From a virus: DNA of 33,147 nucleotides. The notes beneath the pieces were generated by a model, which was not told the DNA's origin, did no database searches, and saw only the letters and a list, made by a program, of their open reading frames with translations. Positions 1 through 32,552 of this stretch are shown here, in pieces. The first letter of the stretch is position 1. Every line of letters begins with the position of its first letter. Position numbers and translations under genes: made by a program. The stretch lies in UHGV virus genome UHGV-0236124. One strand, given 5' to 3'.

Positions 1-2
1 GG

Positions 3-125
3 CATAACCTGAATCTGAGGCAGCACCTGGCACGGCTGGGACGGAAGTCGCTGTCGTTCTCAAAATCGGTGGAGCTGCATGACAAAGTCATCGGGCATTA
101 TCTGAACATAAAACACTATCAATAA
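3..125 (+). CDS. 3' end of an ORF truncated by the window start (last ~40 codons, product unknown)
   Basis: Frame 3 is open from the window edge to TAA at 123-125; no start codon in window; product not recognisable. Confidence 0.2.
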
Positions 126-146
126 GTTGGAGTCATTACCCGTGAT

Positions 147-404
147 ATGAAGAAGTACCTGGGAGAGATGAAGCGTCTGGCTGATGGGGGAGAAATGAAT
201 TTTGATGGCTATCTGGATAAGATGTCACATCTGGTGAATGAAGGAACGCTCGATCCTGATATTTTAAGCAAAATGCGAGATGCTGCACCACAATTAATTA
301 GCTTCGCGAAGTCGTTTGACCCAACCTCAAAGGAAGAGATTAAAATACTTACAGACACTTCTAAATTAATTTATGATTTGTTCGGGGTTAAATCGGAGAA
401 ATAA
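147..404 (+). CDS. hypothetical small protein (85 aa)
   Basis: ORF track; ATG start; followed by hairpin plus T-run terminator at 446-473; no recognisable family. Confidence 0.4.
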   Translation: MKKYLGEMKRLADGGEMNFDGYLDKMSHLVNEGTLDPDILSKMRDAAPQLISFAKSFDPTSKEEIKILTDTSKLIYDLFGVKSEK

Positions 405-445
405 TATGTGAAGTTCTTCGATAGTATGGAAGGCATTATATAAAA

Positions 446-473
446 GGACCCAATATTTATTGGGTTCTTTTTT
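446..473 (+). terminator. rho-independent terminator candidate
   Basis: ggacccaat-att-attgggttc stem (one G-U wobble) followed by tttttt. Confidence 0.5.
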
Positions 474-1124
474 CTCTATCAATGCTATTAGCAGGGAGAT
501 ATATCACCAGAGTTTAATGTGTGATTTTTTATTTATCGTCGAACCTGGATTGTTTATCATTGGCCTTAACAAAGTTAACGGCTAATAAGATTATTTCCAT
601 CACTTCGTGAGAGCTTCATGCCTTGAGAGGATCTCAATTTTCTTTTGCAATGAGACAGGCGCTTCCTGTTGTTATGGTATAGTACCCCGCTATTGAGCCT
701 CCTGAATAGTGATGCTGAATAACATAACCCCATGATATATCGATAAAATAATCTCTACATTTGAAAATGCACGGTAATTCTGAAATGCAAAAAATCAACC
801 AAACCAGCGCAATGCCTGAAAAAACTGACGTTCACTGGAGTGGTCGGTTTAGCGTTGCACCAATGCTCGATAGGATGTACCGTTTTTGAAAAACAACTAG
901 TTATACACTTTGTGGGAGCCTATTGGGAACCTGTTATTCTTAGAAAGCATCATTTGCTCATCACTTCAATTGACCATGATTAAAGCCAGCTATAAACTTG
1001 ACAAACAAGGTAACTAGTTGCTTAGGCCTAAGTGGGCACACCATAAGAAGCTCATGTTGGTGATGAAGCAACCCATGAAGTATCGAGAATAATTACAAAG
1101 TTCACTATCTTTGAGGTTTCTTAT

Positions 1125-1697
1125 ATGTTTTGCGAAGAAAAAGTAGCTCAAATGGCTGCATACCTACTTCTTAAGCGAGGTGGGCGCATGGCATATCTGA
1201 AATTGATGAAGCTGCTCTATCTGTCTAACCGCAAGTCGATTTTGAAGCATGGCAGGATGATCGGCGAAGATAGCCTTTACTCTATGAAATTTGGTCCAGT
1301 CATGTCGAATACGCTGAACTTGATTCGTGGTAAGGCTGAAGGTATTGGTGACTACTGGTACAACCTGATAGAGACGAACGGGCATGATGTGTTGTTGCGT
1401 TCAGATCCGAGGGAAATGGATGCAGACGAGGTCTTTGATGAGTTGAGCCGTGCAGATATCCGGATTTTAGATGAAATCTATTCTCTGTATGGGCATATGA
1501 ACCGATTTGATCTCGCAAACATGACGCATTTAGAAAGCGTTTGTCCAGAGTGGCACAATCCTGGCAATTCTCGTAAGCCTATAGACCTGAAAGAAATGCT
1601 GATCAGTGAGGGTAAAAGCGAGGATGAGGCTAATCGTATAATTGGCAAAATGGAAGAATCTCAGAAACTTAAGGAATTTTCTTTGCAATTATCATGA
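1125..1697 (+). CDS. Panacea / DUF4065 domain protein (SocA/PanA-like antitoxin-type domain)
   Basis: 190 aa; stretch AYLLLKRGGRMAYLKLMKLLYLSNRKSILKHGRMIGEDSLYSMKFGPVMSNTL resembles DUF4065 as I recall it; stop overlaps next start (ATGA at 1694-1697). Confidence 0.6.
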   Translation: MFCEEKVAQMAAYLLLKRGGRMAYLKLMKLLYLSNRKSILKHGRMIGEDSLYSMKFGPVMSNTLNLIRGKAEGIGDYWYNLIETNGHDVLLRSDPREMDADEVFDELSRADIRILDEIYSLYGHMNRFDLANMTHLESVCPEWHNPGNSRKPIDLKEMLISEGKSEDEANRIIGKMEESQKLKEFSLQLS

Positions 1698-2113
1698 CGG
1701 ATTATCAGCCATACAGGAAAGGAACTGTGCTTGCCCCAACTGGGCCATGCAATCATCTTCATGTGATTTGTAATGATCCTGTTTATTACCCCGTTAACGA
1801 TTGTTATTGTGTTTTAGTTGTTAATATTTCTAGTATCAAGGATGGTGTCCCCCACGATCCGTCTTGCGTCTTGAATTCTGGTGATCATCGCTTTATCAAG
1901 CATCCAAGTTATGTTGTTTACGCTGAAGCTATAATTTGGCGAGTGGATAACATGGTTAGAAAGCAGCGATCGGGTGAGATTTCCGTTCATGATGATATGC
2001 CAGAAGCTACATTCAATAGAATTCTGGACGGTTTTGATATATCTGATGAAGTTACGCCAAAGAACCTTAAATTTAAAAATAAATATTGCGTATCATCTAT
2101 TGATGATGAGTAA
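1694..2113 (+). CDS. hypothetical protein translationally coupled to the Panacea-domain gene (candidate toxin/effector partner)
   Basis: 139 aa ORF; ATGA overlap with upstream gene; no recognisable domain. Confidence 0.5.
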   Translation: MTDYQPYRKGTVLAPTGPCNHLHVICNDPVYYPVNDCYCVLVVNISSIKDGVPHDPSCVLNSGDHRFIKHPSYVVYAEAIIWRVDNMVRKQRSGEISVHDDMPEATFNRILDGFDISDEVTPKNLKFKNKYCVSSIDDE

Positions 2114-2152: not shown

Positions 2153-2326
2153 ATGGAAGATCAAAAAGCAACCAAGCCACAGGTTAAGTTCGACACAATG
2201 AAAGCATTCGCAGGTATGGGGGCTGCTGTTGAAGTTCTGATGAAGGCTGCTCCTAATGCGTTCACTCACGCTACTGTCTCTGGTAAAGAGCAGCAGGGTA
2301 AGCTTCGTCGTCGCAAAGCAGCATGA
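2153..2326 (+). CDS. small protein (57 aa), third gene of the cassette
   Basis: Hand-translated (below the 60-aa cutoff of the ORF track): MEDQKATKPQVKFDTMKAFAGMGAAVEVLMKAAPNAFTHATVSGKEQQGKLRRRKAA; GGAG 6 nt upstream of ATG; terminator immediately downstream. Confidence 0.4.
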   Translation: MEDQKATKPQVKFDTMKAFAGMGAAVEVLMKAAPNAFTHATVSGKEQQGKLRRRKAA

Positions 2327-2345
2327 TCATAGCTGGTGCTTTTTG

Positions 2346-2372
2346 AAAACCCGCCTTTAGGCGGGTTTTTTC
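2346..2372. terminator. bidirectional rho-independent terminator between convergent genes
   Basis: aaaacccgcc-ttta-ggcgggtttttt; A-run on one side and T-run on the other, so it can terminate both the plus-strand cassette and the minus-strand gene ending at 2374. Confidence 0.6.
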
Positions 2373-2373
2373 T

Positions 2374-2655
2374 TTAGTGATGTTCTTTGCCCTTCTGTTT
2401 GCCTGTTCTGACCTGTTCCCACTCGATACGTCCTTCTTCTCGTCTTTTGTCTATGTATTCCGCAAGATCCTGAATATTGATGCAACGTTTTGCTTTTTGT
2501 GATGTACCGATGCGATATGTAGGTACAGGCAACTTACAAGCGTTTGCTTTTGCTTCTGCTGTGGCTGGACTCATACCAAAGTATTTTTGACTAACTGCTG
2601 AGAGTTCAATGTTTGGGGTATTGAATTCAGCCATCAGTAAAAACAAGGTATTCAT
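2374..2655 (-). CDS. excisionase-like / PrtN-family small DNA-binding protein
   Basis: 93 aa; N-terminus MNTLFLLMAEF... and KLPVPTYRIG motif are typical of PrtN/Xis-like phage proteins as I recall them. Confidence 0.55.
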   Translation of the reverse strand: MNTLFLLMAEFNTPNIELSAVSQKYFGMSPATAEAKANACKLPVPTYRIGTSQKAKRCINIQDLAEYIDKRREEGRIEWEQVRTGKQKGKEHH

Positions 2656-2691: not shown

Positions 2692-3507
2692 TTACTTATT
2701 CATTTCAATAATATTATTTTCTATCATTGATTTATTTAAAACCAAAGAAGGAGCAAGATGGTTGTCTATTTTAAACAATGCATAACTTTTAAACTGTTGG
2801 TGATATCCGTAACTAATAAGGATGCTAGAAAAATCTCTTAATTCATCTTCTTTTAAAAAATTAAAATGAAATGGGTTGTCACCATTTATGAACAATGAAA
2901 CATCTATTATGCAGTATTTCTCTCCGTTGTCATTTGCATAGAAAAAAATATAAGACATTCTGTTTGTTAAGACAATGCCATTAAATTTTCTTATGTCTGT
3001 AGCTATTTTGTTTTCCATGTTTGGTGCTACATATTTATTTTCAGAAATACATTTAATTTCATCTCCAGATGTCGTGATTATATAAAAATGAAACTTATCA
3101 GAAATATCTAACTTAACTACGCCATCATTATTGTAAAGGCTGCTAAATTTTGGTGGTTCAACTTTTAAAGAATCATAGTTCTTTAAAAGAAGAGGAGAGT
3201 CAAATTTAATAACTTGTAGTATCCCTTTACCTTCAACCTCCATATTGATTGAAGATATAGCAATTGCATTATCTCTTTTATTATTCAGGATTATGGTTGA
3301 TATATGCATGTCATATATTCTACTTGCATTTGCTGAATACGACACTGTCACCTTTTTTGATATTTTTTGCACGCCAAAATATATAGTGAAGGCAGCGGCA
3401 AGAATAGATAAGAATTTAATGTCAAATAAGGACCATAGCCACATTAGTTGCTCAATTGCTTCAGAGTTAATCATTTGCTTTACCATTATCGCTGTAATAC
3501 AACACAT
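2692..3507 (-). CDS. AT-rich hypothetical membrane-anchored protein (moron)
   Basis: ORF 2692..3525; N-terminal hydrophobic helix LMWLWSLFDIKFLSILAAAFTIYFGV; strongly A+T-rich codon usage unlike neighbours; start uncertain (ATGs at 3507, 3486, 3474; the 3525 start is TTG); no clear SD. Confidence 0.5.
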   Translation of the reverse strand: MCCITAIMVKQMINSEAIEQLMWLWSLFDIKFLSILAAAFTIYFGVQKISKKVTVSYSANASRIYDMHISTIILNNKRDNAIAISSINMEVEGKGILQVIKFDSPLLLKNYDSLKVEPPKFSSLYNNDGVVKLDISDKFHFYIITTSGDEIKCISENKYVAPNMENKIATDIRKFNGIVLTNRMSYIFFYANDNGEKYCIIDVSLFINGDNPFHFNFLKEDELRDFSSILISYGYHQQFKSYALFKIDNHLAPSLVLNKSMIENNIIEMNK

Positions 3508-3628
3508 GTGTGTATATATACGCAATGCAATTATTTTGCAAGTGCTTCATTTACTATCAATAGCTACGTCACGTTATTGTTTAATGGTTCTTTATAGGGG
3601 CGGCAATAGTTAAAATTATCGCTTCCGT

Positions 3629-3650
3629 AAATGCCCCCGCAGGGGCATTT
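3629..3650. repeat. perfect GC-rich hairpin (9-bp stem aaatgcccc/ggggcattt, 4-nt loop) with no adjacent T-tract
   Basis: Read directly: aaatgcccccgcaggggcattt; lies just 3' of the YfdQ-like gene on the minus strand. Confidence 0.5.
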
Positions 3651-3662
3651 GCAGTAATGAAA

Positions 3663-4487
3663 TCAGGCGGTGAAAGTACCAATAAAGGTTTCTACTTTGC
3701 TGTCTTTGAATTTCTCAACAAGCAGATCACGAAATTCGTTAGCCATTTCTTCCTGTACCGCTTCCAGCTGAATAATGCGCAGAACCAGTACAGGACGATC
3801 GCCAGTGATAATGCTGAGGCGTAATTTAAACGGACGTTCTTTCAGACCTTCAAACGGAACGCATTTAAATTCAAATGCCACTGGCATAATGTCTTTGGTC
3901 TTCGCTTCGACAGACTCCATCAGGGAGCGTTTGCCGCTGAAGTCATTATCTTCAAAATCAGCGGTCTGGTTCGCTTCAATTGTGATTTTACGGATCGCCG
4001 CAGCCGCTTTGGTTGCCTGAATGGCGTCACCATTAGCATCAAAGCCCACAAGGTAGTCGGCCCAGTCTTCAATCCATTCTGCCAGTGACTTCTGGGAGTT
4101 ACGCTCGCCATTAACAGACAACAGAGCAGAGAACGGAGCTGTCTTTTTCAGTTTGAGAGTGGCGGTGTTATCTGCGTGACCTGGTTCATCAATAGTACCC
4201 AGGTTAAGAACACTGACGGCACGCATATTATCAGCATCGATAAAGCAGCGGGTGCCTTCATCTGCAAGATCTTTAGAATAACGAGTAAAGTCATCGATGC
4301 TGGCAGTGGAAAGCGCACCACGGAAACGGAAGCGATTTAAATTTAATTTTTCCAGATCATGAATGCGGAAATTCTCAGGCAATGCCACAGCATCGGCACC
4401 AATCTTACTGATAATTTCATTAACACCCTGAGCAGAAATAAGGGCATGGATTTGATTAATTGCGGTTGCGTCTAAGTTCTGAGACAT
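3663..4487 (-). CDS. yfdQ: YfdQ-like (DUF2303-type) prophage protein
   Basis: 274 aa, same length and similar sequence to CPS-53 YfdQ as I recall it; recollection-based. Confidence 0.55.
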
Positions 4488-4552
4488 AATAAGTCCTCAC
4501 TATATAAAGATATTCAGTGATGAGATAAATAATCGGTTAATTAAGAACGATA

Positions 4553-4915
4553 TTAATGACCTGCTGCGCGGAGTTTTCCGTCAGGTTCACCGGCAAGAGT
4601 CAGTAATTGTCCCTGGTCTTCCTGCAGAATAGTCAGGCGACCACCGCGATTGACATACATCGGCGTTTCGGTGGTGTCTTCTTCGGAAATTTTCCCGCGG
4701 TTAGTCGGGCGAACATATGAGAGTTTGTGTTTGATTTTCACACGGTTCTCATCAAATGGTTCGATTTCCAGGTTGAGTGAGACCTTACCTTTGGTTTTCG
4801 TGTTCATCACACCGGAAGCGACTTCACTGAGAACTGCGCCGATTTTGGTTTCAAATACGCCGCCGTCCAGCTCCCCAATAAATGCCTGCACATCAGTACT
4901 GCGTTCGCTAGCCAT
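4553..4915 (-). CDS. YfdP-like hypothetical protein (120 aa)
   Basis: Start moved to internal ATG (MASERSTDV...) which is preceded by AGGAGCAGCAAA; the longer ORF to 5101 has no RBS and runs into the GC-rich leader. Confidence 0.5.
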   Translation of the reverse strand: MASERSTDVQAFIGELDGGVFETKIGAVLSEVASGVMNTKTKGKVSLNLEIEPFDENRVKIKHKLSYVRPTNRGKISEEDTTETPMYVNRGGRLTILQEDQGQLLTLAGEPDGKLRAAGH

Positions 4916-5524: not shown

Positions 5525-5553
5525 CTTTTAGATACATTATGTATCCCAAAGGT
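5525..5553 (-). promoter_or_regulatory. pL-like leftward early promoter candidate with overlapping operator-like site
   Basis: Minus strand reads TTGACA-17 nt-ATAATG; imperfect operator atgtatc-ccaaa-ggtacat (5529-5547) has the same architecture as the OR palindrome. Confidence 0.4.
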
Positions 5554-5555
5554 AC

Positions 5556-5580
5556 ATTGTCAAGTATAAAAAAACCTGCC
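5556..5580 (-). terminator. terminator downstream of the repressor gene
   Basis: aacctgc-cgaa-gcaggtt hairpin with T-run on the minus strand (plus-strand aaaaaaa at 5556-5562). Confidence 0.5.
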
Positions 5581-5601: not shown

Positions 5602-6276
5602 TTAGGCCTTTATTATGTATCTTCTTGGTTTTCCTGAGAAAATCACTGTACCAATTATAGAGCAATTACCGTTAATCTTAATGTAAGGCTCAGGCCAGTT
5701 TGGGTTTAATGCTTTGAGATAACGCTGTGTTCCATCTTCTATCAACCGCTTGAAGGTGGTTTCGCCTGTATCGTGCATCAATGCAATAACGTCGTCACCG
5801 TGGCAGGCAGGGACTTCAGGATCAACAAAAATCATGTCTCCCGGGCGGTACTCATCAATCATTGAATCACCAATCACCCGCAAGATATAAGTCATTTCGC
5901 CACAGGGTACAGGGCAGGGATAAGTTTCTGCTGTGCTCAAATCAACCTCAGAATAGCCAACTTCTTTCCATGCTCCGGCCTGTACCCATGATATGACAGG
6001 GACTAACGTTATTTGTTTGTTAGTGATTGAAACGTCAGTTTTTTTTGTGATGTTCGTTGTCTGGTGTTCTTGATCAAGCCATCCGACAGGCAGGTCGAAA
6101 CATTTTTCGATGTGCCGTGCCATGCTGTCACCGATATTTTTAGTTGCACCATCTCCCATAAACCTGCTGGTCTGGGTTGGCTCGCGATCAATCATGGTGG
6201 CAAAGGAAGAATTCCCGCCAACACCATCTCTCAGTTTTCTGGCGTTAGACCGCCGGATGTCATGGACTGTTTTCAT
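5602..6276 (-). CDS. CI-like phage repressor (HTH plus S24 LexA-like peptidase domain)
   Basis: 224 aa; N-terminal HTH region and C-terminal ...ILRVIGDSMIDEYRPGDMIFVDPE... typical of S24 autocleaving repressors; divergent from the cro-like gene. Confidence 0.85.
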   Translation of the reverse strand: MKTVHDIRRSNARKLRDGVGGNSSFATMIDREPTQTSRFMGDGATKNIGDSMARHIEKCFDLPVGWLDQEHQTTNITKKTDVSITNKQITLVPVISWVQAGAWKEVGYSEVDLSTAETYPCPVPCGEMTYILRVIGDSMIDEYRPGDMIFVDPEVPACHGDDVIALMHDTGETTFKRLIEDGTQRYLKALNPNWPEPYIKINGNCSIIGTVIFSGKPRRYIIKA

Positions 6277-6292
6277 AAAGAAATTAAAACCT

Positions 6293-6311
6293 TTGTACCG
6301 ATAAGGTACAA
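6293..6311. promoter_or_regulatory. operator: perfect palindrome TTGTACC-GATAA-GGTACAA
   Basis: Read directly in the cI-cro intergenic region; related imperfect copies at 6343-6361 and 5529-5547. Confidence 0.55.
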
Positions 6312-6316
6312 GTATC

Positions 6317-6344
6317 TTGAAGGTTCATCTCAATCATGTAATAT
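6317..6344 (+). promoter_or_regulatory. pR-like promoter candidate
   Basis: TTGAAG-16 nt-TAATAT about 22 nt upstream of the cro-like ATG. Confidence 0.45.
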
Positions 6345-6366
6345 GTATACCGGAGGTACATATTGT

Positions 6367-32213: not shown

Positions 32214-32552
32214 ATGAACAAAACGATTTTATTCTGCACGATTATTGCCTTAACAGGATGTAAATCTTTGGATTACGTAAAATCCGGCAAGCCTGTAATG
32301 GAAGGTAATTCATTAAAAAATATTGATGAATTGTCAGGCTGCATATCCAGACAATGGGCTGGTAATGGAACACCTATAACATCCATTCCTATTGAGAATG
32401 GGGTAAGCCTTTTAGTTCCACAGGCTATGGGTGGGTATGATGTTGTGCTTGATATCAAAAAAGCAGGAAATGGCAGTAGTTTTACTCTTTATGAACGCGT
32501 ACCAGCATTAACGCCAAAAATTTTTGCTGATAGTGTTAATGCATGTAAATAA
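32214..32552 (+). CDS. lipoprotein (moron between I and J)
   Basis: MNKTILFCTIIALTGCKS signal peptide with lipobox L-T-G-C; A+T-rich; own terminator downstream. Confidence 0.6.
   Translation: MNKTILFCTIIALTGCKSLDYVKSGKPVMEGNSLKNIDELSGCISRQWAGNGTPITSIPIENGVSLLVPQAMGGYDVVLDIKKAGNGSSFTLYERVPALTPKIFADSVNACK

Follow-up and report, generated by a model that had tools for sequence, protein, structure and literature searches.

A predicted PrtN/RdfN-type excisionase gene at the attL end of a lambdoid prophage integrated in dusA

Host boundary, attachment site and cassette at the left end

The window, which is the whole stretch of DNA analysed, comprises 33,147 nucleotides of the virus genome UHGV-0236124. 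Its left part holds host DNA, the attachment site attL, a plus-strand cassette and a minus-strand run of genes separated by short gaps (yfdP, yfdQ, an ORF of 277 amino acids and xis), of which xis is the last (Table 1). A GGAG sequence is found 7 nt 5' of the xis ATG. The initial annotation described this gene as excisionase-like and without a neighboring integrase, and this was borne out, as the largest ORFs in 1-2370 encode 190 and 139 amino acids and both are on the plus strand. It also took the whole of 1-2370 as prophage DNA carrying plus-strand accessory genes, a description that holds for 871-2370 but not for 1-870, where IS1, yjbM and dusA are located.

Table 1. Features in the left part of the window. 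Strand: +, plus; -, minus;., not stranded.
Feature	Position	Strand	Evidence or remark
Right end of IS1 inserted in host yjbM	1-140	.	Match features 'IS1-like element IS1A family transposase'; host-side, outside the prophage
3' part of host yjbM (DUF2713), truncated by IS1	141-404	+	Pfam PF10897, E=2.7e-55
Orphaned 5' end of host dusA, 35 codons	767-870	+	Translation MHGNSEMQKINQTSAMPEKTDVHWSGRFSVAPMLD, then diverges
attL core ATGCTCGA	863-870	.	Common to attL, attR and phage attP
Conserved P' arm of the attachment site	871-934	.	Identical or near-identical to attP of mEp460 and Lys8385Vzw
Panacea/SocA-domain antitoxin-like gene, first of the cassette	1125-1697	+	Pfam PF13274, E=1.8e-18
139-aa ORF, 4-nt overlap with the antitoxin stop	1694-2113	+	phrog_19071, E=3e-31
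57-aa ORF kept in the slot in related phages	2153-2326	+	phrog_2741, E=8e-36
Terminator-like hairpin between the convergent cassette and xis	2345-2370	+	11-bp stem, 6 GC pairs, then T-run
xis, PrtN/RdfN-family recombination directionality factor (predicted excisionase)	2374-2655	-	93 aa, ATG start
Upstream co-oriented genes: 277-aa low-GC ORF, yfdQ (DUF2303), yfdP	2692-4915	-	ORFs, Pfam, RefSeq annotation of a relative
Candidate early-left promoter pL	5536-5563	-	TTGACA-16-CATAAT, 11 of 12 matches
LexA-like (S24 peptidase) CI repressor, ymfK type	5602-6276	-	Pfam PF00717, E=1.4e-26; annotated as LexA family

The prophage-free strain BDSF8-3 matches window positions 1-870 at 100%, including the IS1 junction, and then continues into an intact dusA. 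Consequently, the host/phage junction lies at 870/871 and the prophage starts at 871. The same IS1 insertion in yjbM is carried by this prophage-free strain at 100% identity, so the insertion, which lies 730 nt before the start of the prophage, is unconnected with it. Relatives without IS1 match the window only from position 141, and they annotate a DUF2713 protein where the yjbM remnant covers only profile positions 151-235 of the 235 of PF10897. The translation of the dusA remnant ends with RFSVAPMLD before the frame breaks, and the corresponding piece in a relative is labelled in RefSeq as 'tRNA-dihydrouridine synthase, incomplete, missing C-terminus'. When junction-spanning queries were applied to 5,426 complete E. 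coli genomes, the IS1 insertion in yjbM and the prophage were found in one piece in none of them. A deletion mediated by IS1 was considered and rejected, the host DNA from IS1 to attL being intact.

The attL core was obtained from alignments of the attL of the window, the attR of E. coli strain 6409 and the attP of mEp460 and Lys8385Vzw, and the phage attP corresponds to the left arm of attR joined to the window from position 863 onward. The dusA remnant abuts phage DNA at 871, as in elements integrated at the 5' end of dusA, and the site is intact and identical to that of the relatives. The initial annotation had considered that an integrase gene and attL might turn up just beyond the left edge and would then speak against its reading; this is wrong, as attL is inside the window, and the prophage boundary can thus be placed there. 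The P' arm holds a tandem of GGGAGCC (914-920) and GGGAACC (925-931) plus the palindrome GTTTTTGAAAAAC, while the attP of mEp460 diverges from the window beyond about +70. The 11-mer TGGGAACCTGT of the P' arm recurs at -149 in the other arm, where two more GGGAACC copies are located at -136 and -164. These GGGAGCC/GGGAACC motifs are candidate integrase arm sites with a putative binding role. Across the window GGGAACC shows no overall enrichment (2 matches against 3.7 expected), so that it is the clustering in both att arms, and nothing else about the motif, that is suggestive. Unlike mEp460, the deposited record of Lys8385Vzw has two tandem copies of the ATGCTCGA core at attP; the duplication may be genuine or may have arisen in the assembly of a prophage-derived record.

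Between attP and xis lies the plus-strand cassette. Its second gene, the 139-aa ORF, had no match in Pfam, NCBIfam or PADLOC, and by its arrangement with the antitoxin-like gene it is a candidate cognate toxin. The other cassette genes and the 277-aa ORF were likewise without a PADLOC or NCBIfam match, and Xis had none in NCBIfam. At the place equivalent to the third gene, mEp460 and Lys8385Vzw have an ORF of 174 nt. The hairpin that closes the cassette is predicted to terminate cassette transcripts; when read on the minus strand it is followed only by UUUUC, and it is therefore expected to be weaker for the xis transcript. The complete three-gene Panacea cassette is shared by the window and Lys8385Vzw, while the slot is occupied elsewhere by a hypothetical gene and a YafO toxin (strain wlxctx60) or by single other ORFs (mEp460 and 1720a-02), and it is empty in the Yersinia phage YeP1 and in 11 Enterobacterales loci. 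Since the cargo is variable and can be absent, the cassette is a secondary, derived insertion into the gap between xis and attP.

The xis product and its family

The only Pfam match of the xis product is PF11112 (PyocinActivator/PrtN; E=3.1e-23, 82.1 bits against a cut-off of 24.2), spanning residues 3-74 of the protein and positions 1-73 of the 74 of the profile, which places it among the small proteins of about 75-95 amino acids with this domain. It also matches PHROG 1300, 'excisionase' (E=1.1e-39), and PF11112 is present in all 36 of its database homologues (36/36). Proteins of the isolated coliphages mEp460, SKA5 and Lys8385Vzw are 97-99% identical to Xis, the range being 96.6-98.9% when the Stx2 phage 1720a-02, at 96.6%, is included. 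A more distant homologue, with 61% identity, is a PrtN protein of 76 amino acids from V. cholerae, which has the same length as the published RdfN and may correspond to it. The contig of this protein carries zur, the PrtN gene, an OLD/UvrD pair and an MpsA-like Integrase_1 gene, and its context is an SGI1-like island beside zur.

The AlphaFold model of Xis (pLDDT 89.6) has the excisionase/MerR-like winged-helix fold, with a helix-turn-helix and a β-wing. Its structural neighbours include RdfS, Pukovnik Xis, Tn916 Xis and, as the closest of them, P2 Cox, which has only 11% sequence identity to it; a sequence search of the PDB with Xis gave no match even at E<=10. As described by Durand et al. 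(2021, PMC8409611), RdfN is a PF11112 protein of 76 amino acids that is necessary for the excision of a V. cholerae dusA element, RdfN and Int are sufficient to excise a mini-element in E. coli, and rdfN homologues are ubiquitous, though divergent, in dusA elements. From its family and these experiments on relatives, the protein encoded here is predicted to be an excision factor.

PrtN of Pseudomonas switches on the pyocin genes, and it could be argued that the protein of the window likewise serves mainly to activate transcription, with no part in excision. The pyocin activator gave the Pfam family its name, the fold class of the model also includes transcription regulators such as BldC and the MerR proteins, and P2 Cox is itself a repressor as well as an excision factor. 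However, one dusA element has been shown to rely on a member of the family as its only excision factor (PMC8409611), and in siphoviruses, myoviruses and non-tailed phages the gene is always found beside the attachment site and varies together with the dusA-type integrase. Moreover, the prophage has its own Q-type antiterminator for the late genes. A main role as an activator is thus very unlikely. Regarding Cox, the likeness is limited: its gene heads the lytic operon and its product doubles as the lytic repressor, neither of which applies to Xis of the window.

The integrase gene at the opposite end of related prophages

As the initial annotation had proposed, the window was compared with related prophages, and a tyrosine recombinase was found at the far end beside dusA, not to the left of xis. 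Window positions 141-33147 align with a prophage of E. coli strain 6409 in a single alignment of 99.92% identity, with 24 mismatches and one gap, and the prophage of strain YJ3 is 100% identical to both window ends. Past the window, these two prophages continue with tail fibre genes and a reverse-transcriptase/SLATT pair and end with dinI, a tyrosine recombinase of 365 amino acids (PF00589) and dusA. The integrase gene of strain 6409 is intact and located, by the coordinates of that strain, about 10.2-11.3 kb past the right edge of the window. The dusA gene at the attR of strain 6409 has a phage-supplied 5' end, as is also seen at the attP of mEp460 and Lys8385Vzw, and the 88-bp spacer between int and dusA' holds three GGGAACC motifs in the relatives. 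In strain 6409, the reverse transcriptase between the tail fibre genes and dinI-int is of a defence type (PADLOC RT_UG17, E=1e-158) and is accompanied by a SLATT protein.

Near-identical prophages are present in at least 65 complete E. coli genomes, and an intact integrase of this length and family is seen next to dusA in prophages that match the window at 99.9-100% identity. The last complete ORF of the window ends at 32552. The int gene of this particular copy falls outside the window; by comparison with the near-identical prophages, it has presumably been retained.

The initial annotation had suggested that int was lost or displaced in a defective prophage, and the deletion or displacement could be ascribed, for instance, to IS1, leaving the excisionase orphaned. 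The IS1 end is indeed 730 nt away from the prophage, the window has no integrase gene, and it stops short of the right end of this copy. Nevertheless, nothing has been deleted on the left, because positions 1-870, with the IS1 junction, are identical to a prophage-free strain with an intact dusA, and attL is intact and the same as in the relatives. In addition, a prophage collinear with the window, at 99.92% identity, has an intact int at its other end, and in no integrated member of this phage family does int adjoin xis. Decay of the prophage is therefore a highly improbable explanation for the isolated excisionase gene, and it is not supported by the comparison.

The position of attP accounts for the arrangement. 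In the virion genomes of mEp460 and Lys8385Vzw, the order is exonuclease, xis, an opposite-strand cassette, attP, int and dinI. YeP1 lacks a cassette, and only 280 bp, which include attP, separate its co-oriented xis and int. The two genes are co-oriented and 0.3-1.7 kb apart in the circular genomes, and, as attP is between them, xis invariably ends up at attL and int at attR after integration. Accordingly, in the integrated state xis is 1.5 kb inside attL and int just inside attR, about 41 kb apart.

The same split is seen in other phages that are unrelated to this one. A myovirus-type prophage of strain wlxctx60 has the order dusA', two-gene cassette and PrtN gene at one end and dinI, int and dusA at the other, and in both the Morganella phage IME1369_02 and a non-tailed Vibrio prophage the integrase and PrtN-type genes occupy opposite ends. 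In the prophage-ordered record of phage 1720a-02, int is at 194-1291 and the PrtN gene at 45572-45856. This phage (Phi-stx2dact) inserts at a point 100 bp into dusA, re-forms attP when induced and needs int for its excision (PMC6328086). The Int proteins of the group formed by mEp460, Lys8385Vzw, SKA5 and 1720a-02 are 98-99% identical to that of the twin prophage of the window, and the identities of Int and Xis fall together across dusA phages (Int 99/98/69/68/56%, Xis 97/54/47/48%). The Vibrio phage 10N.261.45.F7_PE001 is a 13.7-kb non-tailed (double jelly-roll) prophage with a PrtN-type xis and an integrase of 56% identity. Its lytic operon starts with xis, which faces away from the gene of a LexA-like repressor, and its att end carries a YafO toxin.

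Morons inserted between xis and int had been offered as another cause of the separation. Such genes do lie between the two in the circular genome, but they are not the cause, as attP lies between them too. That the cassette was recently inserted into a lambda-like adjacent xis-int pair, the separation being due to the morons alone, can be dismissed almost entirely: the cassette is variable and absent in YeP1 and 11 Enterobacterales loci, but without it attP is still in the 280-bp gap of YeP1, and the integrated copies have the dusA remnant 64-147 nt after xis. YeP1 and the cassette-less loci thus indicate that it is where attP lies, and not the cassette, that puts the two genes at opposite prophage ends.

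For a broader view of the family, an alignment-based scan of one genome per species gave 80 loci from other species with a PrtN-type xis, in which a dusA remnant was recognized by the DusA N-terminal motif S-[VI]-A-P-M-L-D within 10 kb of xis. The motif was found in 41 of the 80 loci, against about 0.4 expected by a rough estimate. Among these 41, the geometry of the window, with a truncated remnant on the opposite strand just past xis, occurs in 15 Enterobacterales loci, the distance between remnant and xis being 64-147 nt in 11 of them and 1.1-1.36 kb in the four with a cassette. In Vibrio, Photobacterium and Colwellia, the remnant is upstream of xis and on the same strand, as in the non-tailed prophage. 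The loci of Pectobacterium fontis and Proteus terrae have xis and int adjacent but convergent, beside a full-length dusA, which suggests very small or heavily deleted dusA elements.

In the other 39 of the 80 loci, from other genera, no dusA remnant was found, and for this reason the PrtN family is not exclusive to dusA, being used with at least one other att/integrase class. A tRNA gene was beside xis in none of these 39 loci; seven of them have one, at least 1.8 kb away. Many carry tandem AGCACCCC(N3)AGCACCCC repeats 60-110 nt after xis, which, by analogy with the GGGAACC repeats of the window, suggests a second integrase/att class with the same excision-factor family.

Proposed control of xis and comparison with known modules

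Taken together, the ORF at 2374-2655 is, with high probability, the RdfN/PrtN-type excisionase gene of a lambdoid prophage that seems to be complete and has inserted into the 5' end of dusA in the host. In circular form, its genome would run from the early-left operon through xis, the opposite-strand cargo cassette, attP and int to dinI, and in the integrated form int would be just inside attR, divergent from the reconstituted dusA and about 10 kb to the right of the window. Such an arrangement has been known before, as dusA-specific prophages with Int(dusA) and an RdfN-type factor are a described class.

Regarding the early-left operon, the candidate pL is located just downstream of the repressor gene and of a terminator-like hairpin of that gene. 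A 20-bp palindrome, ATGTAyC..GGTACAT (5538-5557), is found within the pL spacer, and three more copies are present in the cI-cro region (6292-6361). Judged by these consensus and repeat matches, the layout looks like the oL/oR arrangement of lambda, with pL/oL under the same repressor as pR, and CI is presumed to control pL and hence xis. Within the operon, the 277-aa ORF (2692-3525, minus strand) has a GC content of about 0.32, compared to about 0.50 for the phage, and matches only phrog_14996; related phages carry an exonuclease gene of 573 nt at this place, and the ORF is probably an accessory gene that was acquired or exchanged here.

Durand et al. (2021, PMC8409611) left open what drives rdfN in prophage-type dusA elements. 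Here, xis closes an operon for which the candidate promoter shares its operator with the cI-cro region, which points to SOS control of rdfN through the LexA-like repressor in a lambdoid dusA prophage. The switch would then proceed as follows: self-cleavage of the LexA-like CI during the SOS response would free the operator-covered pL (about 5563-5536), and the leftward transcript of yfdP, yfdQ, the 277-aa ORF and xis would supply Xis. Int would be provided from its own promoter in the int-dusA' spacer, with its three arm-type motifs. Xis, as a small winged-helix DNA bender, would bind an att arm, turning Int from integration to the excision reaction between attL and attR.

A further and rather unlikely reading combines two additional roles. 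The PrtN-type factor, near the GGGA(A/G)CC motifs, would also silence the divergent int and the phage-borne dusA' promoters, tying the expression of a host tRNA-modification enzyme to prophage induction, and the gap between attP and xis would be a dedicated slot for toxin-antitoxin cargo, whose convergent transcription would damp leaky expression of xis in the lysogen. The layout behind it consists of convergent genes that share the hairpin between the cassette and xis and of arm motifs inside the int-dusA' spacer.

Compared to the int-xis system of lambda, the module proposed here likewise has a tyrosine integrase and a small winged-helix factor, with xis in a repressor-controlled leftward early operon. 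Nevertheless, the two genes of lambda adjoin and overlap each other and share a transcript, and attP is not between them but to one side, which keeps both at one prophage end. In the window, no int ORF is found near xis, and in the phage genomes attP is between the two genes and not outside a cassette with xis just upstream of int.

Among the closest described modules is that of RdfN and Int(dusA) from IMEVchUSA3 (PMC8409611), which also has a small PF11112 protein, in its case the proven excision factor, targets the 5' end of dusA and has no xis directly downstream of int. It brings a replacement dusA 5' end with a promoter, and a substitute 5' end is seen in the relatives of the window. Unlike the element of the window, which is a tailed lambdoid prophage, IMEVchUSA3 is a mobilizable island, and its rdfN is under an AcaCD-dependent promoter, whereas xis of the window belongs to an early-left operon that appears to be controlled by a repressor. 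The proteins also differ, since the 93 amino acids of Xis include an extra basic C-terminal tail compared to the 76 of RdfN.

The DAI elements described by Farrugia et al. (2015, PMC4482086) share the single site in the 5' end of dusA, the imperfect direct repeats as attL and attR and, as seen in the relatives of the window, an integrase gene adjoining dusA; with about 44 kb, the element of the window is within their range of 30-60 kb. That study gives a 21-bp att consensus and names no excision factor, the words 'excisionase' and 'xis' being absent from its text (PMC4482086). Near-identical Xis proteins and, for the twin prophage, Int proteins are shared with mEp460, Lys8385Vzw, SKA5 and 1720a-02, and the order xis, cassette, attP, int and dinI with mEp460, Lys8385Vzw and 1720a-02. 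These four phages are mosaic relatives, with early and structural genes that are partly different, and mEp460 and 1720a-02 have different cargo in the slot.

The premise that int of lambdoid prophages is always next to xis has exceptions in KplE1, HK620, Sf6 and CUS-3, where the transcription of int and of the recombination directionality factor gene is uncoupled (Panis et al. 2010, PMC2951348). In KplE1, HK620 and Sf6, the int promoter is within the att arm and int is autoregulated, and autoregulation is predicted for the 'opposite-divergent' layout of int and target (PMC2951348); by resemblance, int of the phage in the window may be autoregulated as well. As in the KplE1 module (IntS-TorI), int and xis are on opposite sides of attP, int would be uncoupled from the excision-factor gene and the switch would rest on the expression of the excision factor. 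However, the target is the protein-coding gene dusA and not tRNA-argW, and PF11112 is the only Pfam match of the factor, which is of the PrtN and not the TorI family. Thus, the module works like that of KplE1 but is no member of that family, as the excision-factor family differs and the target is not a tRNA gene. For genome annotation, this means that an apparently orphan excisionase at one end of a dusA or KplE1-like prophage is normal and no sign of decay.
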